A stretch of 64,000 nt of DNA from a virus. The position numbers were made by a program, and so were the translations under genes. The stretch spans positions 32,001-96,000 of IMG/VR virus record IMGVR_UViG_3300042454_000021. One strand, written 5' to 3'. Under the pieces are notes generated by a model, which saw only the letters and a list, made by a program, of their open reading frames with translations, was not told where the DNA came from and did no database searches. Positions 5,956 to 26,901 of the stretch are shown here, piece by piece (the stretch's first letter is position 1; each line of letters begins with the position of its first letter).

Positions 5956-6543
5956 ATGGAATTAAAATTAGTATTTCCTGTACACAGTCAAAGTAATCCT
6001 TTAGGATTTTATGTATATAATGATTGTTTTACAGAAGAAGAATTAGGATGGATAGGTAACCTACAAAAATTATATGACGTACAGAAAGCATCAACTGGTT
6101 TTGGTGAGGATGAGGATGATATAAGGAAGTCAGATGTGAAATGGTTACATCATGATGATAAGACATATTGGTTATATAATCGTTTATCAAACGTTGCTAT
6201 GTTAGCTAATAAAGAAACATGGCAATTTGACATCCCTTCAATTTTAGATTCTATTCAATATACACAGTATTATGATGATGGGGGACATTACGATTGGCAT
6301 ATGGACAATGGTCCTTATCCTATGAATACAAGAAAGATTAGTATTACTGTTCAACTATCTGATCCTAACGATTATGAAGGTGGAGTGTTAGAATTAAATG
6401 TAGGGAATACAATAGTTCAAATGCCTAAAGAGAAAGGATGCGCTGTATTATTCCCTAGTTATATGTTACATAGAGTTACACCAGTAACAAAAGGGGTACG
6501 TAAAAGTCTTGTTCTTTGGGTGGGTGGTACAACTTTTAAATAA
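5956..6543 (+). CDS. 2OG-Fe(II) oxygenase (prolyl-hydroxylase/PKHD-like)
   Basis: YDWHMD, RKISITVQLS, YEGG, FPSYMLHRVTPVTKGVRKSLV. Confidence 0.9.
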   Translation: MELKLVFPVHSQSNPLGFYVYNDCFTEEELGWIGNLQKLYDVQKASTGFGEDEDDIRKSDVKWLHHDDKTYWLYNRLSNVAMLANKETWQFDIPSILDSIQYTQYYDDGGHYDWHMDNGPYPMNTRKISITVQLSDPNDYEGGVLELNVGNTIVQMPKEKGCAVLFPSYMLHRVTPVTKGVRKSLVLWVGGTTFK

Positions 6544-7133: not shown

Positions 7134-7751
7134 ATGAAAGTTACAAGTAGCTTTAATAACTATTTAGTTATAGATGATTTTCTAAAAGAGGATGAATTAA
7201 AAAACGTTTGGTTAGAATTAGACTTCTTAACTAATAAATCTATAATGCTACCTCCTGAGAAATCTAGTAGTGCTAGGGATACATTAACTAACGTAATATT
7301 AAAAAAGAATAATGTTATATTTCTAGATGATGTATATCAAAACAGAGAGACATCACATATATTTAATGTATTTCAAAAATTACGTGGGGAAGAATTAACT
7401 GATATCATAGAAGATCTACCTCATGAATTTAAATATTTTAAATACATAGGACATGATCGTACATTTATTAGTTACTATGAGGATAGTGATTACTATAAAC
7501 CTCATGTTGATCAAGCAGTTTTAACATGTTTATATTGGTGTAATAAATCTCCAAAATCATTTGAAGGAGGTAATTTAACAATAGGTGATGAACAAACACA
7601 AATTGAATATAAGAATAACAGATTAGTTATATTCCCATCTTATAATATACATTCAGTAGATGTTATAAAGATGGCAGAAGATAACATACCATTTTCAGGA
7701 TGGGGAAGATATACAATAACTAAATTTTTATTTGTTAACCCTAAACCTTAA
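7134..7751 (+). CDS. 2OG-Fe(II) oxygenase
   Basis: YKPHVD, FEGGNL, IFPS..IHSV, GRYTIT. Confidence 0.88.
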   Translation: MKVTSSFNNYLVIDDFLKEDELKNVWLELDFLTNKSIMLPPEKSSSARDTLTNVILKKNNVIFLDDVYQNRETSHIFNVFQKLRGEELTDIIEDLPHEFKYFKYIGHDRTFISYYEDSDYYKPHVDQAVLTCLYWCNKSPKSFEGGNLTIGDEQTQIEYKNNRLVIFPSYNIHSVDVIKMAEDNIPFSGWGRYTITKFLFVNPKP

Positions 7752-8090: not shown

Positions 8091-8683
8091 TGCTAATTAG
8101 ACCAACATTTGAAGCCAACCCAGAGTTTCGTCAGATAACTCCATATCATATCGCTAATGCCTTTACACAAGAGGAGTTAGAGTGGATAGGTAATTTACAA
8201 CAACTATACCCTTATCAAGATGCTAGTATAGGTGGAGATGAAACATCCCAACTAGATGAGTCTATTAGAAAGTCTAGAATAAAATGGATACATCATGATG
8301 ATAAATCATGGTGGGTGTATGATAAGTTAGTTAAACACATAGAAGAGGCAAACAAAACATGGGGCTTTGCAATCAATTCTATCATTGATTCTATTCAATA
8401 TACAGAATACTATGAAGGTGGTGGTCACTATGACTGGCACATGGACGTAGGAAATCATCCAATGAACAATAGAAAGATTAGTGTAACAATACAACTATCT
8501 TCTCCTGATGATTATGAAGGAGGCGATCTTGAGTTTTGGGTGGGAAGAACTCCAGATAAAGCACCTAGAGAACATTTGTTAGCAATCCTATTCCCTAGTT
8601 ATCTAATGCACAGAGTGACACCAATAACTAAGGGAGTAAGAAAGTCTTTAGTTGTTTGGGTAGGAGGGGATACATTTAGATAG
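8090..8683 (+). CDS. 2OG-Fe(II) oxygenase, paralog of 5956..6543
   Basis: YDWHMD, RKISVTIQLS, HRVTPITKGVRKSLV; shares FT.EEL.WIGNLQ.LY with 5956. Confidence 0.9.
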   Translation: MLIRPTFEANPEFRQITPYHIANAFTQEELEWIGNLQQLYPYQDASIGGDETSQLDESIRKSRIKWIHHDDKSWWVYDKLVKHIEEANKTWGFAINSIIDSIQYTEYYEGGGHYDWHMDVGNHPMNNRKISVTIQLSSPDDYEGGDLEFWVGRTPDKAPREHLLAILFPSYLMHRVTPITKGVRKSLVVWVGGDTFR

Positions 8684-9736
8684 TACATCCTCTACAGAGA
8701 TTGTCTTATGACACTCATGTTGTCTAGGAGTATCTTCATGTTCAGGACACCAGTTCCAATCTCCCTTATTAAATCTAAACTTAGGATTGTTCCAACATCC
8801 ATTACATACGCTTCTGTTCTCTATACGTATACAATCAAACTCATGATTAGCTTCAGTGAAGTTTGCTATCATTGCTACCTTCACTTCCATAGCCCAAGCT
8901 AACCAGCTAAGCCCACTACTAAGTCCTATGTACACCTCACAGCTAGCAAGGATATCCATAATGTTTTCTAATGATTGATCTTGTGGTCTATGTACATTCT
9001 TTAAATCACAATCATCTTTAGAGAGTTCGTATACATCGTAGCCTAAAGTTATAAGTGTGTCTATAAGTTCTTGCCATTTGTCCCAAAGTTTTAGTTGTGC
9101 TGTAGACTTTACACTAATACATATATGTTTCTTGTCAGACTTAAAAGCCTTAGGTTTATAAGCTAACCTTGGTCTCATCTCTTTATATGAAAGATTCAAG
9201 ATATCTGTAGCTGATTGTTGTAATGGTATCGTGACAGGATTGTTAGGCTCCTTGTCTTTATCCCAGAACCATCCCAGCTGTGGCATAGCTATAATATTCT
9301 CAACTGTAGATCCTGGTTCAATAAACTCTAGTTCAGGATATGCATCTTTAAACAAAAAGTTTTTGAATGTTGACACAATAACTTTGCACTGGTAACGTTG
9401 TTGAAATTCTAATACGTAAGGCATCCATGCTATGGTGTCACCTAATGCTGCGCTATCAAAGCTAATGAATACACGTTTCCCTTTAAGATGATGTAAGAAA
9501 CTGATACGTTGTTTTAATACACCTTTATCATTTCTAATCTCTACAAAGAAGTTACCAATGTAACGTTTACTGCACTTCATCCACATGCCTTTCTTCAGGA
9601 CATCTTTATAGATTTCTGTACGTACGCCATTACGTTCTTCAACAAACGCACACTGATACTCTTTATCATCATAGCTATCTACTAATTCAAAGTAGAGACC
9701 ATCAATATTATATAGTTTAAAATCCATAATAGGCAT
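8648..9736 (-). CDS. Autotransporter O-heptosyltransferase-like (TibC/Aah family, GT9 fold) protein glycosyltransferase
   Basis: ALGDTIAWMPY, IGLSSGLSWLAWA, and the four-Cys iron-finger CNGCWN...WCP...HECHKTI. Confidence 0.85.
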   Translation of the reverse strand: MPIMDFKLYNIDGLYFELVDSYDDKEYQCAFVEERNGVRTEIYKDVLKKGMWMKCSKRYIGNFFVEIRNDKGVLKQRISFLHHLKGKRVFISFDSAALGDTIAWMPYVLEFQQRYQCKVIVSTFKNFLFKDAYPELEFIEPGSTVENIIAMPQLGWFWDKDKEPNNPVTIPLQQSATDILNLSYKEMRPRLAYKPKAFKSDKKHICISVKSTAQLKLWDKWQELIDTLITLGYDVYELSKDDCDLKNVHRPQDQSLENIMDILASCEVYIGLSSGLSWLAWAMEVKVAMIANFTEANHEFDCIRIENRSVCNGCWNNPKFRFNKGDWNWCPEHEDTPRQHECHKTISVEDVLSKCIPSYPNN

Positions 9737-10727
9737 TTAGATATGCATTGGTTGTATCTTCACTAGTCCATTTCTGATTAATTATACTAACAGCATCATA
9801 GAATTTCTTTAATATCTTACATACTTGTAACCAGCTATGATCTTGACGTTTTATTAATTGTTCATTTCTCATAGCCCCATACTTATTACATACAGTTTGT
9901 ATACCTGTAACTACAGCTTGTGTTGTATTCTCTGGAAGATTATACATACCAGGTAGAGTGACATTAGATGTACCAACAATTGGTAACCCACAACTCATTG
10001 CTTCTAGTATAGAGAGATTAGGATGTCCATACTCTAAGAATGATGGAGCTAAGAAAAGTGTATGATCTTGATATAACTTAAGAGTTTCATCATCTGTAGG
10101 ATTTGTTAACTTTAAAGTTAACTTTTTATAATCCAAAAGATCTTTATGTCCTTCAAAGAATGCATTGTTATTCTCAGGACCAGCAATAGTTATAGGAAGA
10201 TTAAGTCTTTGAGCTGCCTCTATTCCCCATCTAAATCCTTTTCTATCAATTGTACAATCACCTGCTAATCCATTGTTAGCTATCATCAATAAACTATGAT
10301 CTGTAGTAGTTTCTATAGATGGTTTGAAGAAGTCTGTGTTAACGCCATGTGGAAGATAGAACAACTTATCTGTACCATCAAAGTAATCAATGATGTGTTT
10401 ACTATGACATATAGATATAACAGATCCTTTAATAGCTGCTAAGTTATCCTTATACACACCACTATCTTTACCATACCATTCAGCATGATGATCATGTAGT
10501 GAGTAGATGTATGGTATATCTTTGTCACGCATGTCAATAGCTGTGTTAGCCATGTGTACATGAGCTAACATGTTTGGTTCTTTAACTACTTCATTCCAGT
10601 TTTTAATCTCTACGTCTACATCTAATAGTTTTAAGTTAGTAGTGTATTCCCAGATGATACGTTCTACAGCACCCCAACCATTAGGTGGGATGGTGATAAG
10701 TCCTGTTGCTACTTGTACAATTTTCAT
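9717..10727 (-). CDS. GT4 glycosyltransferase
   Basis: IPPNGWGAVE, PHGVNTDFF, RKG, and E..NLSILEAMSCGLPIV (Ex7E). Confidence 0.88.
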   Translation of the reverse strand: MKIVQVATGLITIPPNGWGAVERIIWEYTTNLKLLDVDVEIKNWNEVVKEPNMLAHVHMANTAIDMRDKDIPYIYSLHDHHAEWYGKDSGVYKDNLAAIKGSVISICHSKHIIDYFDGTDKLFYLPHGVNTDFFKPSIETTTDHSLLMIANNGLAGDCTIDRKGFRWGIEAAQRLNLPITIAGPENNNAFFEGHKDLLDYKKLTLKLTNPTDDETLKLYQDHTLFLAPSFLEYGHPNLSILEAMSCGLPIVGTSNVTLPGMYNLPENTTQAVVTGIQTVCNKYGAMRNEQLIKRQDHSWLQVCKILKKFYDAVSIINQKWTSEDTTNAYLNAYYGF

Positions 10728-13366
10728 TTCTTTATGAATTCTTTATGTTGTTTGTCAATCAATGAATAACCATCTGCCTGTGTTGTAAGTCTTTTATGTA
10801 CAATTCCCATATCATAAGAACTGCTATAAAATATTTGGTTAAAATACATATCAGCTGCGTCCCATTTACTTAAACGCAGTTTTTCCTTTAAAAAGTTACT
10901 GACATAAGAAGGGAACATAATGCATTGTAATCCTATTAAATGATCTGTAACATACATATCTTCATCTACCTCTCTCACTACAGGACTCTGTGGCCATGCA
11001 AACTCTAATGTATCTTTGTCTCCAAAAGACATAAAGCCTATGTTGTTTTTTTCCAACATTAACGCACATTTTTCCACTTTGTGTATGAAATTTCCAACAT
11101 CTCCTTCAATTAAACAATCTCCCTCACAGACTATTATGTATTCGCAGTCATGCATTTCAGCCAATATGGCATTTTTGAATGCTTCATAGCAACCATAGTG
11201 TGCTGGCGTAAGCGCTGTGCTTCGCTCTCTGACTGTAGCCTCATCGAATAACTCCATTGAGATTGCTTGTGGTCTGTTACAGTTATGCTGGGGTGGAAGG
11301 CTGGCATAAGGGATATTCTGGTGGAGGATATACTCCCATCCATAAGCTTTGACTTCTTGTAATGAAGCTCTAGATAATCGTTCTCGTTCATCATTTAATG
11401 TAGTTTGAATGTGTACTAATTTAATTGTAGGTCTGTTCTTATTTGCATTTGCCATTTGCTTTAAAATAATAGTTCCATCATGTTCATATCCATCTAGGAT
11501 ATATAACTCTTCTTTTATTGTCGTCCATTGATCCACTATAAATAACTCTACTGTCTTGACATCATCAGGGATAGGTAACACTAATGTTTGTTTCTCTGAT
11601 AGAGTTATGGATGCAGCTGTAGTAGTATCACTATCATCAAATACAACTTCTATAACTCTATGATCATTATTGTATGAATGGAAATAGAATACATTCTGAC
11701 CAGATATTTGTTCCTTTAGTATTCCATAATACTCACTGTTAGAAGACGTACCATGCCCACTGTGCTCTAGAAAAGTTTCCATATTTGGATACTCTACCCA
11801 CACCCCATTAGTCTTCTGCACCTTCTTCATCATGTAATCTTCTAAGAAGTTCTGAGCTCCTATAGATTCACATAGTTTATTATACTCTTCTGGTGTACGT
11901 ACATCATCTAATAGCTTACCTACAAAGTCTGTATTGAAGAACATACCATTGGTTTGTATACCCTTACCAAATGGTGTATTCAATGTAGCTAGTACAGCTT
12001 GCCATTCACTAGTTAATTTACTAAACCCATTATAGATAGCAGGGAAGTCCTTTTCATCTAGCTCTATATCAAATGTTACATAGAACATCTTATTGAACCC
12101 AAATGCTTTGGCTGCCTTACCTGCATTAATCAAGTTAGTTAGAACAGTGAGAGACTGGTTACTATTTCCAGTTATCTTCATCTCCACCTTAGCTTGTTCA
12201 TCTTCACGATAGAATCTATTGTAGTAGCTATGATGTGTCAAAGGATTGTGTTGATCATAGATGTAATAGTCTACCATTTCCTGTATCTTCTTAGGTACAG
12301 GATAATGACTCACTAACATGATTGGTCTATCCAACTTCTTAGCGCTATTGATGCAATCTATAGTTAGCTTAATCCTGGCATCAGTGTTTGGATAGGTGCC
12401 TATAACAATAAGCTGGTTATTCTTCTCTTGTAGGTTTAATATTTTTCTCATATTTATACTATCAGTATAACTATCGCCACTTAAATAAACTACATCTCTA
12501 TAGTCATCATACTTATTACAATATACATCTAGATTAAACATCATCTTAGGGATGTGTGGATACTCTAGCGCTTCTTTAATAGCTATTGGATTGAGCTCTT
12601 TGTTACCTCTATCTCCTCTAGATGTAAACAAGAACATGTCACAATCTTTTATAAAACTACTAACCCTATCTGATTCTCCATGTACTATACAGTTCTCAGG
12701 AAGATCTTCCATTAATGGTTTCCAATAGCTCTCAAAGTTACCAGCTTGATTACCTAAGAAGTGAAACTTTATATTGTAGTTTATAAGATGTCTAGCTATC
12801 TCTATAGCATAGGCTTGATTCTTACGTGGTGTCCACAGTCCCACTATACAAACGTCAAGGTATTGCTTTACTTTTGGTTCCCTTTTGTCAAGCTTTAGAT
12901 TGACAGGATATTCAATAACTTCCATAGGTACATCCAAGTGAGCATACTTGAAGATGTTATAAGCACTAACAAATACAAAGCTATCAGGCATCCATCTTTT
13001 CTCACTAGGAGGAAATGAACTATCATGTGTAGTTTCTACAATACGATATGTTCTGTCTTCACTATATATTTCTCTAGTTAAATCATTATCCATAAACATC
13101 TCAGGAAACTCTTCCATAGAGATGACATCTGGATTGAAGGTATCGATAAAATCTAAAAGCTCTCTTTTGTTTTCTCCTAGAGATTTAAAGTTGTTTCCAA
13201 TCAAAGTTTGTACCTTCTTGCGCTGTACAACAAAGTTCCATGCAAGAAATGCATATTCCACCACCATGATTTCATAGTGGTCTCGTAACAATTTTACCTT
13301 ATTTAATGTTACCTGGGGTGCTCCTCCTGTACTAAAGTGTGGAGATATAATTAATAGCTTCTTCAT
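10724..13366 (-). CDS. Multidomain glycosyltransferase (N-terminal GT-B/GT4-like, C-terminal GT-A/GT25-like)
   Basis: PHFSTGGAPQ, PRKNQ and ELNPIAIKEAL in the N-terminal part; GCYEAF..AI...IIVCEGD in the C-terminal part. Confidence 0.7.
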   Translation of the reverse strand: MKKLLIISPHFSTGGAPQVTLNKVKLLRDHYEIMVVEYAFLAWNFVVQRKKVQTLIGNNFKSLGENKRELLDFIDTFNPDVISMEEFPEMFMDNDLTREIYSEDRTYRIVETTHDSSFPPSEKRWMPDSFVFVSAYNIFKYAHLDVPMEVIEYPVNLKLDKREPKVKQYLDVCIVGLWTPRKNQAYAIEIARHLINYNIKFHFLGNQAGNFESYWKPLMEDLPENCIVHGESDRVSSFIKDCDMFLFTSRGDRGNKELNPIAIKEALEYPHIPKMMFNLDVYCNKYDDYRDVVYLSGDSYTDSINMRKILNLQEKNNQLIVIGTYPNTDARIKLTIDCINSAKKLDRPIMLVSHYPVPKKIQEMVDYYIYDQHNPLTHHSYYNRFYREDEQAKVEMKITGNSNQSLTVLTNLINAGKAAKAFGFNKMFYVTFDIELDEKDFPAIYNGFSKLTSEWQAVLATLNTPFGKGIQTNGMFFNTDFVGKLLDDVRTPEEYNKLCESIGAQNFLEDYMMKKVQKTNGVWVEYPNMETFLEHSGHGTSSNSEYYGILKEQISGQNVFYFHSYNNDHRVIEVVFDDSDTTTAASITLSEKQTLVLPIPDDVKTVELFIVDQWTTIKEELYILDGYEHDGTIILKQMANANKNRPTIKLVHIQTTLNDERERLSRASLQEVKAYGWEYILHQNIPYASLPPQHNCNRPQAISMELFDEATVRERSTALTPAHYGCYEAFKNAILAEMHDCEYIIVCEGDCLIEGDVGNFIHKVEKCALMLEKNNIGFMSFGDKDTLEFAWPQSPVVREVDEDMYVTDHLIGLQCIMFPSYVSNFLKEKLRLSKWDAADMYFNQIFYSSSYDMGIVHKRLTTQADGYSLIDKQHKEFIKK

Positions 13367-14291
13367 AAACTTGATCTACTTCTGGATGACAATAAAACTT
13401 ATCTTTATTTTCAAGGCAACCTATTAAAGGTTGTACGCCTTGTACAGATCCCCACTCCTTAACTCCATATTTCATATCAGAACAACATTGTAGTGCGCAT
13501 GTACCAGCTACATACTTGTAGTTATGATACTGACCATGCACTGTTCTGTATGGAGCTCTGAAGTTAGGATTGAGTGACGAACCCAAGTGTATAATGGGAG
13601 TATTTGTAGTGCCAGCGAGATGTAACAATCCACTGTCCATAGTTATAAAACATGATGCATTATGTATAAGGTGATAACAATCTGATATAGATGTCTGATT
13701 CATTAGATTCATACCATGAGGTATGTCAAAATTAAATACAGGTTTGTCAACATTAAAGAAGCCAGTCTCACTGCTATCTTTACCAATACTAATGACATAA
13801 AACCCTGCATCATTAAGATGCTTAACAAGCTCCATCCATTTCTCAGCAGGCCATGTTCTATTAGGCCACGTACTTACAGGATGTATAAGTATATACTTAT
13901 GGGGTATATCAAATCTATTTGGTTCTATAGGACTGTATTCACAATACAACTCATATCTATCCAACATGAACCCTAATTGTATAGCATGATACTGACGTAT
14001 GTCGATAGTATTATGTTTCATTTCCACTCCTTTTTCATTCTTCTTACCTACATTGGTGAAGGAGTTATGCATAATGAAGTGTTCATTGAAATATTCCCAA
14101 TCGATTGACGTGGACTTGTAACTATTTTGTACGTATGGATTCTTTTTGAACAGCTCTGGTATAGGACTAACCACAGTTATATTCTGTTCATAGGCTCTAG
14201 ATAGTTTTCTTATAGTGGGCGTAGCACATATAAGATCTCCTAGAGCAGGACATTCACTAAGGTTTAGACAAATTGGTTTAGTAGTTGACAT
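13332..14291 (-). CDS. GT9-family (heptosyltransferase-like) glycosyltransferase
   Basis: ALGDLICATP, IHP..TWPNRTWP, FITMDSGLLHLAG, Cys-rich C-terminus; start likely 14291 (alternative 14315). Confidence 0.85.
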   Translation of the reverse strand: MSTTKPICLNLSECPALGDLICATPTIRKLSRAYEQNITVVSPIPELFKKNPYVQNSYKSTSIDWEYFNEHFIMHNSFTNVGKKNEKGVEMKHNTIDIRQYHAIQLGFMLDRYELYCEYSPIEPNRFDIPHKYILIHPVSTWPNRTWPAEKWMELVKHLNDAGFYVISIGKDSSETGFFNVDKPVFNFDIPHGMNLMNQTSISDCYHLIHNASCFITMDSGLLHLAGTTNTPIIHLGSSLNPNFRAPYRTVHGQYHNYKYVAGTCALQCCSDMKYGVKEWGSVQGVQPLIGCLENKDKFYCHPEVDQVYEEAINYISTL

Positions 14292-14775
14292 AGTATCCAT
14301 ATTTATCATCGCCATATAATAATTTCAATGATGGATATCTACTAGCCATCTTATTGTATGTTAGATCTGGTTGATGATGTGTTTCGTGAATATTACCATA
14401 CTCTTCACCTTGCTCATATAAATAAGGTACAGCAATCAAACACTTCTTACCCAATGCATTAATCTTATCAATTAATGGTATTGCATTATCTAGTGTTAGA
14501 TGTTCTAATACATCTCCTAAGATTAGGTAATTGTAGGGATGAATATCAAACTTACATATGTCTTCTAAGAATACATTATCATAAAGATCTTGTAAATTAA
14601 ACTGATGAATGTAAGGTTCGTAAATTTCAACAGCATCTAAATGACATAGACCTTTTAACATCCTACCATAAGTGCCTGATCCAGGACCTACATCTAAGAC
14701 TTTAAAATCTTTATTTACTACAGAGAGTAAATGCTGTTCTACCTCTTCTTTAAATAGTGAGTAACTATAAGGCAT
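14278..14775 (-). CDS. Class I SAM-dependent methyltransferase
   Basis: VLDVGPGSG, DAVEI, GDVLEHL; start at 14775 follows an A-rich leader. Confidence 0.85.
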   Translation of the reverse strand: MPYSYSLFKEEVEQHLLSVVNKDFKVLDVGPGSGTYGRMLKGLCHLDAVEIYEPYIHQFNLQDLYDNVFLEDICKFDIHPYNYLILGDVLEHLTLDNAIPLIDKINALGKKCLIAVPYLYEQGEEYGNIHETHHQPDLTYNKMASRYPSLKLLYGDDKYGYYVNY

Positions 14776-14792
14776 ACTTTTGTTGGTTTGGT

Positions 14793-14810
14793 CAAAGTTA
14801 ATTATATTTA
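14793..14810. promoter_or_regulatory. Divergent Bacteroidota-type -7 promoter elements
   Basis: TAACTTTG on the - strand (14793-14800) just upstream of the glyco cassette; variant TATATTTA on the + strand before 14829. Confidence 0.5.
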
Positions 14811-14828
14811 CACAAAAATACAAGAGCT

Positions 14829-16685: not shown

Positions 16686-17493
16686 AGGTGATGAAGGTCC
16701 ACTAGTAACCAAGCTTCAAGAGAAGTTAGGCGTAGATCCTATTGGTAAGTTTGGACCTAAGACAGAAGCAGCTCTAATAGCATGGCAGTTAGCTAATGGC
16801 TTACAAGCTGATGGCATAGCTGGCCCTTTTACATTAGCTAAACTTGGTATAGAAGACCTGCCTAAAGCAGCTCCTGTAGAGATTCCTGAATCAGGATTTA
16901 AACTACACAAGTTAAAAGGACACATACCAGATGGTGTGATTGCACAGATCCCTGATACAGCTGCACGTTTTGGTATTACAAACAACTTACGTCTTGCGCA
17001 CTTCTTATCACAATGTGGTCATGAGAGTGGAGGCTTTAAAGCTGTACGTGAGAACTTAAACTATTCAGTTAAAGGATTAGTAGGTATCTTTAAGAAATAC
17101 TTTAGTCCTACATTAGCTGTAGCATATGAAAGACAACCTGATAAGATAGCTAACAGAGTTTATGCTGGTCGTATGGGTAATGGTGATGAGAATTCAGGTG
17201 ATGGATATAAGTTTAGAGGCAGAGGATATATACAATTAACAGGTAAAGAGAACTACACAAGGTTCGACGCCACAGTTCCTGAGAACATAATTGCAGATCC
17301 AGATTTAGTTGCTACTAAATACCCACTGGCATCAGCAGCTTTTTTCTTTAATAGTAATAAGTTGTGGTCTATATGTGATAGAGGTGCTACGCCTGAAGTA
17401 GTAACAGCAGTGACTAAGAGAGTTAATGGAGGAACTATTGGTCTTGCAGATAGAAATAAACATTTCAATGAATATTATAACCTCCTAAAATAA
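16669..17493 (+). CDS. Endolysin: peptidoglycan-binding domain plus GH19 chitinase/lysozyme-like domain
   Basis: LRKGDEG..V..LQ and ADGIAGP PG-binding motif; HFLSQCGHESGG, ENLNYS, FRGRGYIQLTGK, VTKRVNGG. Confidence 0.93.
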   Translation: MSTLRKGDEGPLVTKLQEKLGVDPIGKFGPKTEAALIAWQLANGLQADGIAGPFTLAKLGIEDLPKAAPVEIPESGFKLHKLKGHIPDGVIAQIPDTAARFGITNNLRLAHFLSQCGHESGGFKAVRENLNYSVKGLVGIFKKYFSPTLAVAYERQPDKIANRVYAGRMGNGDENSGDGYKFRGRGYIQLTGKENYTRFDATVPENIIADPDLVATKYPLASAAFFFNSNKLWSICDRGATPEVVTAVTKRVNGGTIGLADRNKHFNEYYNLLK

Positions 17494-17624
17494 TGGCTAA
17501 ACCATCAAAAAACGCTGAGAACAGAAAGATTGTCTTTGGTGTAAGACGTAAAGGCAAACATCAAAAGAACTTTGGACCTAAAGCTTCTCCTAGAAAAAAG
17601 AAGTATAGAGGACAAGGTAGATAA
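17493..17624 (+). CDS. Small highly basic protein (43 aa, not in ORF track)
   Basis: MAKPSKN...KKKYRGQGR; start overlaps the endolysin stop (TAATG). Confidence 0.6.
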   Translation: MAKPSKNAENRKIVFGVRRKGKHQKNFGPKASPRKKKYRGQGR

Positions 17625-19449: not shown

Positions 19450-19511
19450 TCAATTTGATTAGAGTTGCTAATACAAATCATTAAAGTAAATTTTAATACT
19501 AATAATATATA

Positions 19512-19534
19512 TTGTTTAAACTAATATATATTTG
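19512..19534 (+). promoter_or_regulatory. Bacteroidota sigma70-type promoter (TTG ... TATATTTG)
   Basis: TAnnTTTG at 19527-19534 in an intergenic AT-rich gap, 26 nt before ATG 19561. Confidence 0.6.
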
Positions 19535-19560
19535 TAACATTCTATAAAAATATTCATACA

Positions 19561-20772
19561 ATGGCTATACCATCTAGACAAATAGGTTGGGGAACAGAGG
19601 AAAATCTGTTATGGCAAATCTCTAAGCAATTAGAGTATTTGTCAGGCATTACATACAATAGTGGTGGAGGATCAGGTTCAGGAACAAGTGGTTCCTCAGG
19701 AACTAGTGGTGGATCAGGTACTTCAGGATCAGCAGGTACTGCTGGATTAAGTGGATCTTCAGGAAGCTCAGGCGTAGCAGGTACATCTGGTTTATCTGGT
19801 GATAGATATAAAACAGAATCTGTTACAGAGTTTACATTAGGAACTGGTGGAACTATAACTGTAGGTACAGGTTTATCATACACTACAGCCCAAGACATCA
19901 TTATATCATATGATTCTACTCATCATCAAGTATCGATGGTTACATCATATGATTCTGGTACAGGTATATTAGTATTTGGTGCACCTTCAGAAACTACAGG
20001 AACAGGAGCATACAGTGACTGGACAGTTAACCTTAATGGTGCTGCAGGTGGTAATGGAACTAATGGAACGTCTGGATCTGCTGGAACAAGTGGACTATCA
20101 GGAACATCAGGTGTTGCTGGTACGTCAGGCTCTGCTGGTACTTCAGGTGCTACAGGAACTAATGGGTCCTCAGGAACTTCTGCATCTAGTGGCACAGCTG
20201 GTACAGCTGGTGTAGCTGGAACTGCAGGTACGTCTGGCACAAGTAGTGGTCCTACTACATCTTATGGTTTATTTGCTCAAACAGCTGATAGTACACCTGT
20301 AACTGCTACTACTGTAGAAACAACAATAGTAGGACCAGGAGTGGGTGGATTATCTGTTCCTGCAAATGGATTCTCTATTGGAGATTCTTTTACTTGTTTA
20401 TTAGATGGTCAGATGTCTTGTACAAGTTCATCAACAGTACATATTCGTGTTAAAACATTATCAGGAGCACTTCTTGCTGATACTGGTATAATTGACTTGG
20501 CTGCTGCAACTAATAAAGCTTGGATAATGAATTTGTATTTTACAATTAGAACATTAGGAGGAGCTGGTACTGCATCACTTTCATCTGGAGGATTGTTTTC
20601 TTACATTAGAAATGGAGGAACTCAGTTTGAAGGATATAATTTAAGTACAGTTAATACCACTACGTTTGACACTACAATAAGTAACACATTGGTAATCACT
20701 GCACAATGGGATAGTAATAGTGTAGATAATTCAATAATTTCTCGAAACTTTACATTAACTAAAGTTTACTAA
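19561..20772 (+). CDS. Putative virion fibre/decoration protein with G-T-S triplet repeats
   Basis: N-terminal MAIPSRQIGW module shared with the next gene; two GTS repeat blocks separating beta-rich domains. Confidence 0.65.
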   Translation: MAIPSRQIGWGTEENLLWQISKQLEYLSGITYNSGGGSGSGTSGSSGTSGGSGTSGSAGTAGLSGSSGSSGVAGTSGLSGDRYKTESVTEFTLGTGGTITVGTGLSYTTAQDIIISYDSTHHQVSMVTSYDSGTGILVFGAPSETTGTGAYSDWTVNLNGAAGGNGTNGTSGSAGTSGLSGTSGVAGTSGSAGTSGATGTNGSSGTSASSGTAGTAGVAGTAGTSGTSSGPTTSYGLFAQTADSTPVTATTVETTIVGPGVGGLSVPANGFSIGDSFTCLLDGQMSCTSSSTVHIRVKTLSGALLADTGIIDLAAATNKAWIMNLYFTIRTLGGAGTASLSSGGLFSYIRNGGTQFEGYNLSTVNTTTFDTTISNTLVITAQWDSNSVDNSIISRNFTLTKVY

Positions 20773-20773
20773 C

Positions 20774-21187
20774 ATGGCAATTCCATCAAGACAGATAGGC
20801 TGGAGTACAAAGAGTAATTTGCTTTGGCAGATTTCTAAGCAATTAGAAGCTTTATCAGGCATTATGTATGCTAGAGGTAATCCATCAGTTACTTACTATA
20901 ATGTAGCTGGTTGTGAAAGAATGGAATACCATGTAATTAAATACACTGGTGCTGGCACATTAGCAGAAGGTACCATTGTTAATAATGCTACTCCTGAATG
21001 TTGGACTATAATAGATGCAGCAACAGGTCCTGAAGATGTAGGAACTATTGCCTATGTGTGGAACACTCCTAGTGATTGTCAACCTTGTATAGATTCTCAT
21101 ACAACTACTACTACATCTACTAGCACATCGACTACAACATCCACCAGTACGTCGACAACAACAACTACGACTACTGCTGCACCTTAA
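20774..21187 (+). CDS. MAIPSRQIGW-module protein with Cys domain and mucin-like Thr/Ser tail
   Basis: Ends CQPCIDSH-TTTTTSTSTSTTTSTSTSTTTTTTTAAP. Confidence 0.75.
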   Translation: MAIPSRQIGWSTKSNLLWQISKQLEALSGIMYARGNPSVTYYNVAGCERMEYHVIKYTGAGTLAEGTIVNNATPECWTIIDAATGPEDVGTIAYVWNTPSDCQPCIDSHTTTTTSTSTSTTTSTSTSTTTTTTTAAP

Positions 21188-21211
21188 GAATTAAATTAAA
21201 CCAACAACTAC

Positions 21212-22228
21212 ATGAAGGAATTAAAATTTATCTGTGCCCAACCAGATGACACCTACTACACTTGGCAGGTACATCTATGGTTAGAAAGCTTAAGAAACAT
21301 TGGACATTCAGATAAGGCTATTGTCCTCATCTTTATCCCATCGTTTAGAGATAAGAATGAGAAATGGCAACAGGTCGTAGACCTCTATCCAGAAGCAGAG
21401 TTTGCTTTCTATAAGGATCAAGATGGCGTAAGTGAAAAGTTAGGAATCTATATTCCTGTATTACGACCTTACTCATTGATGCGCTACTGGCAGGATCATC
21501 CAGACATGAAAGACAAAGCAGTGTTCTACTGCGACTCTGATGTCTTGTTTACAGATAAATTTAATGTTGATGCATATATTGATGACGATATAAACTATTT
21601 ATCAGACACCAATAGCTACATTAACGCTTCATACTTCGATAGTAAGATACACCAAGTGCTTCCTGAAAGGTTGCATGGATATAAAAAAATAGATGTTCTA
21701 GCTCAGGCTACAGAGATGTGTGGTATCACACGTAAAATAGCAGAGGAGAACAACGACCACTCAGGAGGCGCTCAATATTTGTTAAAGAATATTGATGTTA
21801 TGTTCTGGGAGAAGGTACTAAGAGATTGCATTACAATACGTAGTTATTTATTAAACATAAACAGACTATATTTCAAGGATGAATCTGCAGGCTTTCAAAG
21901 TTGGTGTGCTGACATGTGGGCTGTCCTCTGGGCTATTTGGTTTAGAGGTGGGGTCACTAAGAATTTACCTGAAATGGAATTCTCTTGGTCGTCAGATCCT
22001 ATTGACAAGGTCCACAGGTTAGGTATATTACATAACGCTGGTATTGTCAATAAAGATATGGGTGACTACCCAGCATTTTACAAAGGTGAGTATCATATGG
22101 GTAAAGATCCATTTCAAGATCCTCATTTAGAATTAGTATTCAATGATCCAAGAGCTCAACAAAAAGGTACACACTACTACGTTGAGCAAATGATGAAGTT
22201 AAAATATAAGTATAAATTAAATTATTAA
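21212..22228 (+). CDS. Putative GT-A peptide O-glycosyltransferase (resembles plant HPAT/SGT1-type enzymes)
   Basis: FYCDSD (DxD), GGAQYLL, FQSWCADMWA (compare GW-x-x-EMY-[AG] of HPAT/SGT1), ILHNAG. Confidence 0.55.
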   Translation: MKELKFICAQPDDTYYTWQVHLWLESLRNIGHSDKAIVLIFIPSFRDKNEKWQQVVDLYPEAEFAFYKDQDGVSEKLGIYIPVLRPYSLMRYWQDHPDMKDKAVFYCDSDVLFTDKFNVDAYIDDDINYLSDTNSYINASYFDSKIHQVLPERLHGYKKIDVLAQATEMCGITRKIAEENNDHSGGAQYLLKNIDVMFWEKVLRDCITIRSYLLNINRLYFKDESAGFQSWCADMWAVLWAIWFRGGVTKNLPEMEFSWSSDPIDKVHRLGILHNAGIVNKDMGDYPAFYKGEYHMGKDPFQDPHLELVFNDPRAQQKGTHYYVEQMMKLKYKYKLNY

Positions 22229-22232
22229 TAAC

Positions 22233-22505
22233 ATGGCAATTCAGAGAGATTTAAAAGCATTTGTTCGCTACGATGGTAGTGGAAGGGTTGTTGCAGGCAG
22301 CCTTATTCTGAGAAAGAACAAGCCAAAAGTGGGAAGATGGCAAGAGATTCCAGCATATGAGTGCTGTAATTACATTCCTACAACTACGACTACTACTACA
22401 GCTAGTCCAACAACAACGACTACTTCTACTAGCACGTCTACTTCTACGACTACGTCAACTAGTACATCTACGTCTACAACTACTACAACGACAACTATTG
22501 TATAA
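22233..22505 (+). CDS. Small protein: ~48-aa conserved head plus poly-Thr/Ser tail
   Basis: LKAFVRYDGSGR...WQEI...ECCN followed by about 40 residues that are almost all Thr/Ser. Confidence 0.8.
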   Translation: MAIQRDLKAFVRYDGSGRVVAGSLILRKNKPKVGRWQEIPAYECCNYIPTTTTTTTASPTTTTTSTSTSTSTTTSTSTSTSTTTTTTTIV

Positions 22506-22507
22506 TC

Positions 22508-22810
22508 ATGGCAAATAGCAATAATCAATTAAAAGCATACGTTCGTTTCGATGGAACAGGACGTATAGTACCAAGCAGCTTAATCTTACAAAGATTCAAG
22601 CCTAAGGATGGTAACTGGCAAGAGATAGATGCAAAAGAATGTTGTAATTTTGTTCCAACAACTACAACAACTACCACTGCAACTCCTACTACTACAACTA
22701 CGTCGTCTTCAACAAGTACGTCAACATCTACTAGTACTTCAACTAGTACAAGTACTTCAACGTCAACGTCTACTAGTACAACTACAACCACTACAACAGC
22801 AGCACCATAA
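22508..22810 (+). CDS. Paralog of 22233: conserved head plus poly-Thr/Ser tail
   Basis: LKAYVRFDGTGR...WQEI...ECCN followed by a Thr/Ser tail ending TTTTTTTAAP. Confidence 0.8.
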   Translation: MANSNNQLKAYVRFDGTGRIVPSSLILQRFKPKDGNWQEIDAKECCNFVPTTTTTTTATPTTTTTSSSTSTSTSTSTSTSTSTSTSTSTSTTTTTTTAAP

Positions 22811-23223
22811 TGGCTAAATCATTATTTCCACAAGAAATGTTAAGTAAAGCAAGTGATAGCGAGCTCTCGTTAGAGAGCATCGCTGCTAAGCTTACTTATT
22901 TTCATGAGCAATTACATTTGACTCATTGGCAAACAAAAAGTTATGCAGAACATCAAGCCACAGGGGCATTGTACGATTATGTACATGATTTCAAAGATGG
23001 ATTGATTGAGAAGCTTATGGGCTATACAGGTAAAAGACCTGGAGTTTATAAAATAGAACCTCTTACAGATTGTACAGCTGAAAAATGTGTAGCAGATATA
23101 ATGTCATTTGCATCATCATTAAAGATGTATGGAGAAAAGAATGCTTATCATGATGTATGTAACTTAGCTGATGCATTGTCTGGAGAGGCAGCAAAAACTA
23201 AATATCTATTAACCTTGTCTTAA
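22810..23223 (+). CDS. Ferritin/Dps-like four-helix protein (DUF5856-like)
   Basis: HLTHWQT.SYAEHQA...YD...D..IE, terminal YLLTLS. Confidence 0.75.
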   Translation: MAKSLFPQEMLSKASDSELSLESIAAKLTYFHEQLHLTHWQTKSYAEHQATGALYDYVHDFKDGLIEKLMGYTGKRPGVYKIEPLTDCTAEKCVADIMSFASSLKMYGEKNAYHDVCNLADALSGEAAKTKYLLTLS

Positions 23224-23799: not shown

Positions 23800-24225
23800 A
23801 TGAACATTAAAGAATTCGATATGGGCAAGTACATCTTACTGATTGGTAAGGATGCTACTGACATATTCAATTACTATAAAGTTAAAGAAATGCATGGGCT
23901 AAATCTTAAAGATGCCCAAGCAGAAGAGGTTGATAAGACAAAAGGTAATGGTGTATACATCTATGGATTGACAAACTACGATCCTGCAGATAAAAAGCTA
24001 GTAGCTAAAGCTCCTTATAAACCTTTTCTTTTTTTAAACATGGGCACTTTTAAAAGATATAGTGCTGATGAACAGAAAACAGCTATAATGCATGAAACAA
24101 TGCACATGGCTCTTCTCCTATACAAATGGGATGCTGAGAAAAAATCAGAAGAAATAGTAACAATGGCTGAAGATGAGGCTAATAAAATCATCAAAAAACT
24201 CAAAGGTATTAAAGTTATAAAATAA
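23800..24225 (+). CDS. Putative HExxH zincin-like metalloprotein
   Basis: AIMHETMH with a downstream EE. Confidence 0.5.
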   Translation: MNIKEFDMGKYILLIGKDATDIFNYYKVKEMHGLNLKDAQAEEVDKTKGNGVYIYGLTNYDPADKKLVAKAPYKPFLFLNMGTFKRYSADEQKTAIMHETMHMALLLYKWDAEKKSEEIVTMAEDEANKIIKKLKGIKVIK

Positions 24226-24422
24226 TGGCAAAGGCAAACAAATCATTAGGTAGTCTTTCAGGACTAAAGGCTTCTAACAAACGTGTAGGACCTGTAGATC
24301 CTAAAGGTGCTTGGACAAAGGTTCAAGAGAAAACTTTAGCAGGAGCTAAAAGTGGTAAACCTTCATTGAAAAAAGATAAAGAACTTGGTGCTACCAAGAT
24401 GGGTGCTAAAAAGAAGAAGTAA
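24225..24422 (+). CDS. Small Lys-rich protein
   Basis: Coupled start; very basic. Confidence 0.65.
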   Translation: MAKANKSLGSLSGLKASNKRVGPVDPKGAWTKVQEKTLAGAKSGKPSLKKDKELGATKMGAKKKK

Positions 24423-24658
24423 TGATCTTTGAACCTGTTAACAGAATAGATGTATCTACACCTAAAGGTGATGGAGTCATCTGGCTTGTTACAGAATATG
24501 GTCATGAAACTGATACAATGTATACAGTTATTATTAACGCCACAGGGGAGCTCTGGCAATTTATTCATAGAGATATTAGGGTAAAACCTAATGTAACATT
24601 TAGAAGATATGGCAAAGGCGAAAGACAAGAATTGGATTCAGAAGGCAGTAAATCCTAA
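24422..24658 (+). CDS. Hypothetical protein
   Basis: VSTPKGDG..W...YG.E motif seen in phage proteins. Confidence 0.6.
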   Translation: MIFEPVNRIDVSTPKGDGVIWLVTEYGHETDTMYTVIINATGELWQFIHRDIRVKPNVTFRRYGKGERQELDSEGSKS

Positions 24659-24764
24659 ACATAAAGGTTTCTGCACCCCTATGACAAAAGCTACATGCAC
24701 TCCCAAGCGCAAAGCATTAGCTATGACATTTAAGAAAATGGCTGCAAAGCGTAAGGGTAAATAA
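24609..24764 (+). CDS. Small Lys-rich protein (51 aa, not in ORF track)
   Basis: MAKAKDKNWIQKAVNPKHKGFCTP...ALAMTFKKMAAKRKGK. Confidence 0.65.
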   Translation: MAKAKDKNWIQKAVNPKHKGFCTPMTKATCTPKRKALAMTFKKMAAKRKGK

Positions 24765-24766
24765 CT

Positions 24767-25090
24767 ATGGCTAAGTCATCACTAAAATCTATGGTGAAGT
24801 CTGGTCTTAGAGCTGGATTACGTAACACACAACCTCAGAATGTCACTAGAGGTAATGGTGTTAAGAATCCACAGAAGGCTACAGCTTATGTAGGTAAGGG
24901 TGTCCTTAGAAATGGTGATAGTATACCAGCAATCAAAGGAGCCATAACACCTGTACCTAATGGTCATCTTATAAAGAAAGATGGCACATCATTAAAGAAT
25001 GGTGGTAAGATAAAGTGCTGGACTGGCTATGTGAAGAAAGGTACCAAGAAGAAAGGTGGTAGAACAGTTAATAACTGCGTTAAGAAATAA
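24767..25090 (+). CDS. Lys/Gly-rich protein ending in a CW.GY...NCV motif
   Basis: KNGG...KCWTGYVKKGTKKKGGRTVNNCVKK. Confidence 0.7.
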   Translation: MAKSSLKSMVKSGLRAGLRNTQPQNVTRGNGVKNPQKATAYVGKGVLRNGDSIPAIKGAITPVPNGHLIKKDGTSLKNGGKIKCWTGYVKKGTKKKGGRTVNNCVKK

Positions 25091-25218
25091 TGAGAAAGAC
25101 TACTAAACTAGATGCTTTCAGCAAGGTTAAGAAAGCCATGAAGCCTAAAAAAGAAAAGATGTGGATGGATAAGGTTAAGAAAAATTTATCTAAAGTTCAA
25201 TCTATTAAGAAAAGATAA
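25090..25218 (+). CDS. Small Lys-rich protein (42 aa, not in ORF track)
   Basis: TAATG coupling at both ends. Confidence 0.55.
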   Translation: MRKTTKLDAFSKVKKAMKPKKEKMWMDKVKKNLSKVQSIKKR

Positions 25219-25478
25219 TGGCAAATAAAGCTATTGTTAAAGCTGGTGGTCAAACTCATAAAGTTTTCAAAAAGAAAACTGATAAGGGTATAGGTGATAA
25301 GGGAGACATCGTTGTAGATCATACAGCTGGAATACCAGCAGGTAAATGGGATAAGATTAATCTCACTGCTAAATCTAGAGCTAAAACTGTTAAACAAGGT
25401 GTTGCTTCAGTTAAGAAGTGGCACAAAGACAATCCTGACTATGGCAAAAAGCGAAGCATGGCAAAGAAAGGAAGGTAA
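25218..25478 (+). CDS. Small Lys-rich protein
   Basis: KAGG; WDKINLTAK...VKQGVASVKKWH. Confidence 0.65.
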   Translation: MANKAIVKAGGQTHKVFKKKTDKGIGDKGDIVVDHTAGIPAGKWDKINLTAKSRAKTVKQGVASVKKWHKDNPDYGKKRSMAKKGR

Positions 25479-25695
25479 GAATCCTTCTGGTGGCCTAAAT
25501 GCAAAAGGTAGGGCTTCCTACAACAGAGCTAACCCAGGTAAACCTGGTCTTAAAGCTCCACAACCTGAAGGTGGTCCTCGCAAGAAATCATTCTGTGCTA
25601 GGATGTCAGGCATGAAAAAGAAACTAACGTCTGCAAAAACTGCAAACGATCCTAATTCTCGTATCAATAAATCTCTACGTAAGTGGAAGTGTTAA
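25441..25695 (+). CDS. Basic phage protein (DUF6321-like)
   Basis: Start ATG 25441; AWQRKEGKNPSGGLNAKGRAS...RKKSFCARM...SRINKSLRKWKC. Confidence 0.8.
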   Translation: MAKSEAWQRKEGKNPSGGLNAKGRASYNRANPGKPGLKAPQPEGGPRKKSFCARMSGMKKKLTSAKTANDPNSRINKSLRKWKC

Positions 25696-25696
25696 C

Positions 25697-26152
25697 ATGA
25701 AAAAATTAAAGAAAGCTCAAGTTGGAAGTTTAGTAAAAGGACTATTTAAAGGTGCAATTAAAGGCACTGGAAAAGCTGCAGCTAAAACAGCTCCTAAAGT
25801 ATTAACTTTAGCTGAAAAAGTAGAGGCTAAAAAATTTGCACAAACACCATTAGAAAAGAAAATAGGAAAAGATGCAGATAAAACTTTAAAAAAGTTAAAC
25901 ATTAATAAGTACAATGAAACTCCTCCACCAGCATTCAAATTAACAGCAGAACAAAAAGCTAATAATGATAGAATTCTTAAGAATGCTAACAATAATATGA
26001 AGTCTGGTGGTATGATTAAACGTGCTGATGGTTCTATGTCTAAGCGTGGTTTATGGGACAACATTCGTGCTAACAAAGGCTCAGGTAAGAAACCTACAGC
26101 TGCTATGTTAAAGCAGGAGAAAAAAATTAAAGCTCAAACTAAAAAGAAATAA
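25697..26152 (+). CDS. Lys-rich protein with KAQxG/KSGG motifs
   Basis: KKAQVG, MKSGG, RGLWDNIR. Confidence 0.7.
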   Translation: MKKLKKAQVGSLVKGLFKGAIKGTGKAAAKTAPKVLTLAEKVEAKKFAQTPLEKKIGKDADKTLKKLNINKYNETPPPAFKLTAEQKANNDRILKNANNNMKSGGMIKRADGSMSKRGLWDNIRANKGSGKKPTAAMLKQEKKIKAQTKKK

Positions 26153-26154
26153 CA

Positions 26155-26550
26155 ATGAAAACAATGAAAAAAGCACAAGCTGGTGCATCTGTTAAAATTA
26201 AAGTTAAAGCTAAACCATTACCTAAAGCAGGTAAACAAACTCCTGCAGACTTCCTTCCAGGATCTTATGATAAGTTACCACGTACAAAAAGTGGTGGAGC
26301 TAATTATGATGGACCTAAAGCTGGACCTCGTGAGATGAATCCTAAAGGTATGTCTAAAAATGGTAGTATGATGAAAAAAGCTAAAGTTGGTGGAGAATTT
26401 GGTATGTTATCAGTGAAAGCTGGTATCGATAAGAACCCTAATCCTACAGCTGCTGATCGTATTGCAGGTGCTACTAAAGGTAAGGCTAAATCAGGAGCTA
26501 TGATGAAAAAAGGTGGTGCTATGAAAAAATGTAAATATGGCTGTAAATAA
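26155..26550 (+). CDS. Lys/Gly/Met-rich protein with repeated KxGG motifs
   Basis: KKAQAG, KSGG, KAKVGG, AKSGA, MKKGG. Confidence 0.7.
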   Translation: MKTMKKAQAGASVKIKVKAKPLPKAGKQTPADFLPGSYDKLPRTKSGGANYDGPKAGPREMNPKGMSKNGSMMKKAKVGGEFGMLSVKAGIDKNPNPTAADRIAGATKGKAKSGAMMKKGGAMKKCKYGCK

Positions 26551-26551
26551 T

Positions 26552-26734
26552 ATGAAAAAGAAAGCTCAATCAGGTGCAGCTGTTTCTAACAAGTTCACCA
26601 TCACTGCAAAACAAGCTCCAGATAAATTAGGTAAAAAACCTTCTAAGGTTGATACTACAAAATCATTTGAGAGTAATAAATTCACTATACCTAAGAAGAC
26701 TATGAAGTCTGGAGGTAAAATGAAAAAGAAATAA
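26552..26734 (+). CDS. Small Lys-rich protein
   Basis: KKAQSG...MKSGGKMKKK; internal SNKFTI repeat. Confidence 0.65.
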   Translation: MKKKAQSGAAVSNKFTITAKQAPDKLGKKPSKVDTTKSFESNKFTIPKKTMKSGGKMKKK

Positions 26735-26901
26735 TGATTAAGAAAAAAACAAAGCCTGTGCTTAAAATGCACAAGCCTGCAAAGGCTCCTAAAGTGGCAC
26801 CTCCTAAACCAGTTGATGCTAACTATATGAAGGAGGCTGATACGCCATCACGTCTTAAGAGTAAGATGTGGCCTTTGAAACAAAAAAGACTTTCTAAATA
26901 G
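26734..26901 (+). CDS. Small Lys/Pro-rich protein (55 aa, not in ORF track)
   Basis: TAATG coupling; MIKKKTKPVLKMHKPAKAPK... Confidence 0.6.
   Translation: MIKKKTKPVLKMHKPAKAPKVAPPKPVDANYMKEADTPSRLKSKMWPLKQKRLSK

Follow-up and report, generated by a model that had tools for sequence, protein, structure and literature searches.

To our knowledge, glycans on phage particles have been demonstrated so far for only a few mycobacteriophages. These virion glycans blunt antibody recognition. In mycobacteriophages Che8, Corndog and Myrna, capsid and tail-tube subunits carry glycans at their C-termini, added by glycosyltransferases that the phages encode, and the particle thereby acquires a glycan coat (Freeman et al. 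2023, Cell Host Microbe 31:1216, as available via PMC12619734). Here, we analyse a candidate protein-glycosylation system in an uncultured phage, IMG/VR record IMGVR_UViG_3300042454_000021 (112,925 bp, 98% complete). The window, that is, the whole stretch of 64,000 nucleotides under analysis, comprises bases 32001-96000 of this record, and coordinates refer to the window unless stated otherwise. Five tightly packed genes on the plus strand, separated by gaps of 1-24 nt, occupy 19561-22810, and include the gene of a 338-aa putative glycosyltransferase (21212-22228, +) flanked by three genes for small proteins with Thr/Ser tails (20774-21187, 22233-22505 and 22508-22810, all +). Based on sequence comparisons and structural models, we consider it probable (about 0.7) that this phage encodes a protein O-glycosyltransferase, which would take sugars from a host nucleotide sugar and attach them to poly-Thr tags of virion proteins exposed at the surface.

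As far as the mycobacteriophage system is described in that source, the two resemble each other in that phages iLp84, 1706, phiCTP1, phiFL1C and R3.3, which carry homologues of the 338-aa enzyme (see below), also have candidate Ser/Thr acceptors at the C-termini of capsid or tail-tube proteins together with a phage-encoded enzyme. What would be new compared with mycobacteriophage virion glycosylation is a different enzyme family, a very simple acceptor tag, other hosts (probably Bacteroidota and Firmicutes instead of Actinobacteria) and small proteins dedicated to the acceptor role, which would be the main acceptors here along with internal stalk segments. A profile of the enzyme family found no match at E ≤ 1 in the whole Che8 genome, and no Mycobacterium phage was among the 77 records matched by the enzyme in tblastn. 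The capsid and tail-tube proteins of Che8 end with ..NKTGS and ..QYSDGS, not with poly-Thr runs. Because Che8 has neither the enzyme family nor poly-Thr tails, the system analysed here differs from its nearest known counterpart.

The initial annotation had pointed out three small genes with Thr/Ser tails flanking the 338-aa gene, and the translated open reading frames (ORFs) bear this out. The first candidate acceptor, a 137-aa protein (20774-21187), consists of an N-terminal anchor motif, a Cys-containing domain of ~70 aa and a Thr/Ser tail at residues 108-137 with the C-terminus TTTTSTSTSTTTSTSTSTTTTTTTAAP. The second, a 90-aa protein (22233-22505), has a conserved 48-aa beta head followed by a tail of ~42 residues ending with TTTTTTTIV, and the third, its 100-aa paralog (22508-22810), carries the same head and a tail of ~51 residues. 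The last residues of the 137-aa and 100-aa proteins are identical, TTTTTTTAAP. The tail length had been estimated as 25-45 residues, which fits the tails of ~30 and ~42 residues and is slightly low for the third. The tails use all four Thr codons (ACA, ACT, ACG and ACC) and both the TCN and AGY codons for Ser, and Tandem Repeats Finder detected only imperfect repeats in their DNA (63-81% matches), save for one exact 9-nt pair. These mixed codons and imperfect repeats confirm the earlier suggestion that the tracts are maintained as protein sequence, as opposed to being clean microsatellites. A slippage microsatellite or a wrong-frame artefact was ruled out by the mixed codons, the use of both Ser codon families and the heads that stay in frame across dozens of relatives.

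Runs of at least seven Thr residues occur in only ~8 real ORFs of the whole 112,925-bp genome, all on the plus strand, and are not expected by chance. The length of the Thr runs peaks sharply at seven residues, which accounts for 139 of the 256 runs in the relatives (loci L003-L082 and L095-L116) and in the three tails of the window (21097-21187, 22377-22505 and 22655-22810). The spacers between the runs are three residues long, mostly VAP, ASP, AAP, VPP or AEP, and most of them end in Pro. Runs of seven Thr (T7) were also found in distant lineages and in Lactobacillus phage iLp84. This quantisation at seven residues may reflect the acceptor site of the 338-aa enzyme. Dense Thr/Ser tracts of variable length are also found in animal mucins and fungal cellulase linkers, where they serve as extended, probably protease-resistant stalks or brushes. 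The phage system differs from the mucin system by its enzyme family (mucins depend on GT27 enzymes), by its cytoplasmic, prokaryotic-viral setting and by the seven-Thr quantisation.

The 338-aa protein contains the segments VFYCDSD, GGAQY and SWCADMWA. It has no match in Pfam at E ≤ 1 and belongs to phrog_4417, a family of no assigned function, over its full length (E 5.5e-50; residues 4-329 on profile positions 1-290 of 293). An exhaustive search gave 748 clusters of the enzyme family at 50% identity, and 2655 clusters at 90% identity were counted among the candidates scored; longer, fused members additionally contain GT2, DXD sugar-binding and methyltransferase domains. An alignment of 78 diverse homologues shows no variation at D108 and D110 of the DSD motif, Q229, H274 or K291. 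The AlphaFold model of the 338-aa protein has a mean predicted local distance difference test (pLDDT) score of 97.4 and a predicted template modelling (pTM) score of 0.93. In this model, D108-S-D110 follows the core strand 103-106, which is the arrangement of the DxD motif in GT-A enzymes, and the invariant H274, downstream of the DxD motif, lies at the end of a strand, where it may or may not act as a second metal ligand. A Foldseek search against the PDB returned 264 matches at E ≤ 0.001, headed by glycogenin (E 3.6e-7), the catalytic domain of UGGT and alpha-1,3-GalT, and with the xyloside xylosyltransferase XXYLT1 also among them. Structural comparison with VIA-align gave Z scores of 14.2 to both glycogenin and LgtC, 13.7 to the Skp1 galactosyltransferase, 12.0 to GlyE, 10.9 to the PBCV-1 capsid glycosyltransferase A64R and 9.3 to GT27. 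The solved structures nearest in fold are thus retaining enzymes of GT8, GT24 and GT6, with the lipopolysaccharide (LPS) or glycan transferases LgtC and WbbM also among them. These fold matches and scores indicate that the 338-aa protein is, as judged from its model, a GT-A glycosyltransferase of the retaining GT8-like kind, in agreement with the GT-A fold and DxD motif proposed in the initial annotation.

Among the GT8 enzymes, glycogenin acts on a protein side chain, and GlyE, a pneumococcal enzyme acting on the serine-rich repeat adhesin PsrP, extends an existing sugar. The phage enzyme shares with glycogenin, LgtC and GlyE the fold (Z 12-14 over ~220-235 residues) and the DxD motif after a beta strand, and has an invariant His later in the sequence. 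However, it is not a sequence member of GT8: the Glyco_transf_8 model (PF01501) had no match on the whole phage genome, with controls matched in six genomes, the identity to the solved structures is ~10-12%, and the phage protein is ~80 residues longer than the GT8 core. Likewise, the Pfam model DUF7164 did not match the phage genome, and a profile of the 78 homologues run against all PDB chains produced chance matches only (small designed or thioredoxin-like proteins). Unlike GlyE, enzymes of the 338-aa type appear to work alone in small phages, as no other glycosyltransferase is annotated in the examined stretches of the small Firmicutes phages. The 338-aa enzyme would therefore probably make the first protein-sugar bond itself.

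The plant and algal enzymes HPAT and SGT1 are retaining-type glycosyltransferases that glycosylate repetitive peptides rich in Ser and hydroxyproline (Hyp), and kinship with these families (GT95 and GT96) had been suggested for the 338-aa protein. This suggestion was not supported, as the HPAT model (PF23452, cut-off 23.9 bits) had no match to the 338-aa protein or elsewhere in the whole genome, and the fold is closest to GT8, GT24 and GT6. The likely acceptor here is also Thr instead of Hyp. Weak HPAT matches were obtained for 3 of the 78 homologues, the best with E 0.012, below the family threshold, and in one related Atlas cluster HPAT is found on 10% of the members. No solved structure of either family was among the fold-search matches. 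Membership in the HPAT or SGT1 family is at present still a lead.

The second line of evidence is the linkage between the enzyme gene and the Thr tracts. We surveyed 80 IMG/VR loci of the same lineage (65-97% identity) and 22 loci of other lineages, and scored an ORF as T5+ when it contained a run of five or more Thr. A stricter Thr/Ser filter classified 27 of the 80 relatives as tractless, which was a threshold artefact, since the filter missed T7 runs broken by xAP spacers. In the same lineage, 79 of the 80 loci have a T5+ ORF that is on the strand of the enzyme gene and no more than 1 kb away from it, and Thr tracts are nearly absent from the remaining ±10-kb flanks. T5+ ORFs were found at 17 of the 22 loci of the other lineages, mostly directly upstream and ending 7-52 nt before the enzyme gene. 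At these loci, 19 of 60 ORFs within 1 kb are T5+, compared with 5 of 185 farther away (Fisher p 3e-9), a p value that overstates the evidence because the loci are not independent. No viral locus was found for the distant query P0192. In relative L081 (5080-6099 and upstream), an inserted 194-aa ORF, which by its sequence resembles an HNH homing endonuclease, separates the gene of the Thr-tailed anchor protein from the enzyme gene, and the cassette can thus be interrupted.

The enzyme family is also present in cultured phages of Lactobacillus, Lactococcus, Enterococcus, Staphylococcus, Clostridium and Chryseobacterium. In all six cultured carriers examined, five Firmicutes phages and one Chryseobacterium phage, poly-Thr proteins adjoin the enzyme gene or stand near it. 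Most tracts of the Firmicutes carriers form the C-terminal ends of annotated capsid and tail proteins, and the tailed proteins near the enzyme gene are capsid, tail-tube or decoration-like proteins. For example, the major tail protein of Enterococcus phage phiFL1C, encoded directly 5' of the enzyme gene, has the C-terminus NGTTTTTSTTTTTTSSTTTTTTTQASSK. The capsid protein and the tail protein of iLp84 both end with TTTTTTTSK, and a 125-aa ORF just 5' of its enzyme gene consists mostly of Thr runs. In Lactococcus phage 1706, two proteins end with 9-10 Thr followed by HHD, namely the capsid/protease protein and the major structural protein, and in phiCTP1 a 200-aa protein encoded 5' of the enzyme gene has the C-terminus TTTTTNAPITTTTTTV. 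R3.3 carries Thr tails on its capsid protein and on a tail protein, and in Chryseobacterium phage MA9V-3 the enzyme gene is closely preceded by two unannotated ORFs with long internal Thr/Ser tracts. The neighbourhood survey thus bears out, far beyond the phage's own lineage, the predicted linkage of the enzyme homologues to Thr-rich ORFs. In phiFL1C itself (L002, 3001-3874), two overlapping frames (record positions 25867-26571 and 26540-26740) together make up the enzyme homologue, with the Thr tails still in place. The gene is in one piece in phiFL1A, phiFL1B and phiFL2B, and the split could be a frameshift or a sequencing error.

The linkage was also tested in the reverse direction with phiGBSVK-C, Javan505, phiJL-1, ATCC8014 and phiLpTT2, the tail-tube proteins of which are ~52-60% identical to that of phiFL1C. 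None of these five phages has a Thr tail on the homologous tail-tube protein, and the enzyme profile found no match in any of the five complete genomes, whereas the same search detected the enzyme in five of five carriers. Within a single genus, Coetzeevirus, R3.3 has both the enzyme and the tails, and phiJL-1 and ATCC8014 have neither; the Coetzeevirus proteins align right up to the start of the tail. The enzyme and the tags are therefore jointly present or jointly absent across these phages.

The small proteins contain two N-terminal modules that the initial annotation had overlooked. The first ~37 residues of the 137-aa protein (MAIPSRQIGW..LLWQISKQLE) are common to this protein and the collagen-like fibre encoded upstream, and the 90-aa and 100-aa proteins share the conserved 48-aa head (LKAFVRYDGSGRVV..KPKVGRW.EI..ECCN). 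We found the anchor motif in 90 distinct proteins of the relatives, with three kinds of distal part: a collagen-like shaft followed by a C-terminal domain; a bare T7 tail, in which case the whole protein has only 44-55 aa; or a poly-Thr linker followed by a Laminin_G_3 lectin-like or an Lcl_C adhesin-like domain. The collagen-like fibres of the relatives carry Gly-Pro triplets. The 48-aa head occurs in 80 distinct proteins, where it is followed by Thr tails of widely differing length (58 to 438 aa for the whole protein) or by unrelated globular domains. Its model is modest (pLDDT 79) and predicts a small three-stranded beta unit, for which the fold search gave a homologue as the sole significant viral match and no informative fold. 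Judged from their sequences, the two N-terminal modules resemble attachment modules whose distal parts are interchangeable. This modular pattern, which is like that of phage fibres, suggests that the poly-Thr segments may serve as stalks or threads. Outside the gene block at 19561-22810, a 1669-aa protein with a match to a virion-structural PHROG family also contains Thr runs, as do three ORFs of the head/tail gene block.

We propose the following mechanism. The 338-aa enzyme would be a cytoplasmic, metal-dependent (DxD), retaining-type GT-A glycosyltransferase that places O-linked sugars from a host nucleotide sugar onto Thr (and Ser) runs before or during assembly. The poly-Thr runs would act as portable acceptor tags, typically seven residues long, with VAP, AAP or similar three-residue spacers between them. 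The three small proteins encoded beside the enzyme gene of this phage would carry the tags as their tails, and each of these proteins would probably be docked on the virion by its conserved N-terminal module, whereas larger structural proteins from other parts of the genome would contain tags internally. The surface of the particle would thus bear rigid threads or stalks covered with sugar. What we infer here is that Thr is the acceptor, that a host nucleotide sugar is the donor, that the products are located on the virion and that the phage benefits from them, and the roles previously put forward for the system, namely shielding, adhesion or receptor mimicry, are guesses. The enzyme-plus-substrates reading of the initial annotation is nevertheless the best fit to the fold, the DxD motif and the linkage data.

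Several observations weigh against this proposal. The evidence comes from genes and predicted structures, the fold by itself is compatible with a sugar or a lipid as the acceptor just as it is with a protein, and our literature search found no paper on the enzyme family or on poly-Thr tails of phage proteins. The small proteins do not match any known virion protein in Pfam, PHROG or the fold search. The counts of enzyme-tail loci are not phylogenetically independent, and at 5 of the 22 loci of the other lineages, representing two lineages, the enzyme has no poly-Thr ORF within 2.5 kb. These five loci would fit an enzyme that glycosylates a non-protein target, such as phage DNA bases or a sugar of the host wall or LPS, with the poly-Thr segments being plain flexible linkers and tails in the same cassette. 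The presence of LgtC and WbbM among the nearest folds and of further GT9 and GT4 genes in the window is also in line with such a target, and DNA-glycosylating GT-A enzymes of phages are known (10.1101/2023.12.21.572611). However, those DNA-modifying enzymes are JGT/TarP-like, have R..DDD..EDY/F motifs and are encoded beside 5mYOX or ThyS genes (10.1101/2023.12.21.572611), whereas the 338-aa enzyme is GT8-like and lies inside structural gene blocks. DNA hypermodification as the main function was rejected on this difference in enzyme type and gene neighbours. In the small temperate Firmicutes phages, moreover, the enzyme is the sole annotated glycosyltransferase in the stretches examined and is encoded next to or near the tagged capsid and tail genes. 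A non-protein target also leaves unexplained why the enzyme and the tails were gained or lost together, five Firmicutes phages having both and five relatives having neither. We consider a non-protein target improbable.

The Thr tails could instead be glycosylated on small proteins that are not part of the virion and act as decoys, protease sinks or surface modifiers inside or outside the cell. The lack of a match to known structural families and the position of the small protein genes, which adjoin the lysis block and not the main head/tail block, would agree with this explanation. It is at odds with the N-terminal module that the 137-aa protein has in common with the collagen-like fibre and with the lectin-like distal domains, typical of fibres, which the anchor module carries in the relatives. 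The Firmicutes phages, in which the tails are directly on capsid and tail-tube proteins without the shared head, argue against it as well, and we regard it as unlikely. In a variant of this explanation, the 48-aa head would be a leader peptide recognised by the enzyme, similar to those of ribosomally synthesised and post-translationally modified peptides; since the tails occur on unrelated Firmicutes proteins lacking this head, a leader is not needed for recognition, and such a role is unlikely. A third explanation concerns the acceptor residue. The weak HPAT matches described above, the two prolyl-hydroxylase-type oxygenase genes in the window and the Pro that ends most spacers between the T7 runs could all be accommodated by a true HPAT-like hydroxyproline glycosyltransferase, in which case phage prolyl-hydroxylase-like enzymes would hydroxylate the spacer prolines and Hyp, not Thr, would carry the sugar. 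However, several Firmicutes tails have no Pro beside the run (TTTTTTTSK, T10HHD and T6SHA), no oxygenase is annotated in the examined stretches of those phages, and the HPAT model matches neither the 338-aa protein nor the phage genome. The Gly-Pro triplets of the collagen-like fibres in the relatives are a simpler target for the hydroxylases, and we give this explanation very little weight.

If the glycosylation of poly-Thr tags on virion proteins is correct, its broader meaning could be that one small enzyme and a tag of about seven Thr, often followed by xAP, form a portable sugar-coating kit that has spread among phages of Bacteroidota and Firmicutes, so that any tagged surface protein becomes glycosylated, and that glycosylated poly-Thr threads can replace collagen-like shafts as stalks. 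We see the arguments for and against this generalisation as evenly balanced. Virion glycosylation would then be common among dairy, gut and aquatic phages and no peculiarity of mycobacteriophages. It would be relevant to phage stability, adsorption and immune recognition in therapy, and to the reading of virion proteomics. The enzyme and its tag might provide a minimal protein-glycosylation tag for engineering, and the preference for seven residues hints that acceptor binding follows a defined rule, of potential use for this purpose.

The record also encodes a terminase, a portal, a major head protein, collagen-like fibres, rIIA/rIIB, a DNA polymerase and a ribonucleotide reductase. The first gene of the block (19561-20772, +) encodes a 403-aa collagen-like fibre with Gly-X-Y repeats, rich in Thr/Ser, that matches Pfam Collagen (E 5e-11) and PHROG tail-fibre families. 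It is preceded by an AT-rich intergenic gap of 111 nt (19450-19560). The initial annotation had placed a promoter here, and the gap, which may hold a promoter, does contain the Bacteroidota-like box TATATTTG at 19527-19534. Pattern scans for promoters and terminators, however, were no better than those of shuffled sequence. The stop codon of the last gene of the block (22508-22810) overlaps the start of a gene for a 137-aa DUF5856 protein (22810-23223, +; Pfam E 8e-14). This protein belongs to phrog_858, which is named 'starvation-inducible transcriptional regulator', and its gene is conserved at this downstream position in most of the relatives listed. Small ORFs for very basic products of 42-107 aa, with a high content of Lys, Arg and Gly, are located at 17493-17624 and 24225-25695 (+) and may encode DNA-binding or internal virion proteins. 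One of them, a 43-aa peptide ending with ..KKKYRGQGR, recurs upstream of the fibre gene in several relatives (e.g. L020, L024, L047 and L066).

Further candidate modification genes lie farther upstream in the window. A glycosyltransferase block on the minus strand (8648-14823) encodes GT9 heptosyltransferase-like proteins (8648-9736 and 13332-14315), a GT4/GT1-type protein (9717-10727) and an 880-aa protein with a GT1 domain (10724-13366). These glycosyltransferases might extend glycans begun by the 338-aa enzyme, or they might act on the host LPS. On the plus strand, a flavoenzyme of the tryptophan-halogenase family (3776-5401; E 6e-103) and two 2-oxoglutarate-Fe(II) oxygenases of the prolyl-hydroxylase type (5956-6543 and 7134-7751) are encoded just 3' of a collagen-like tail fibre (317-2257) and a Gly_rich_2 protein (2260-3258). 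The halogenase and oxygenase genes may serve the hydroxylation or another modification of collagen-like fibres.

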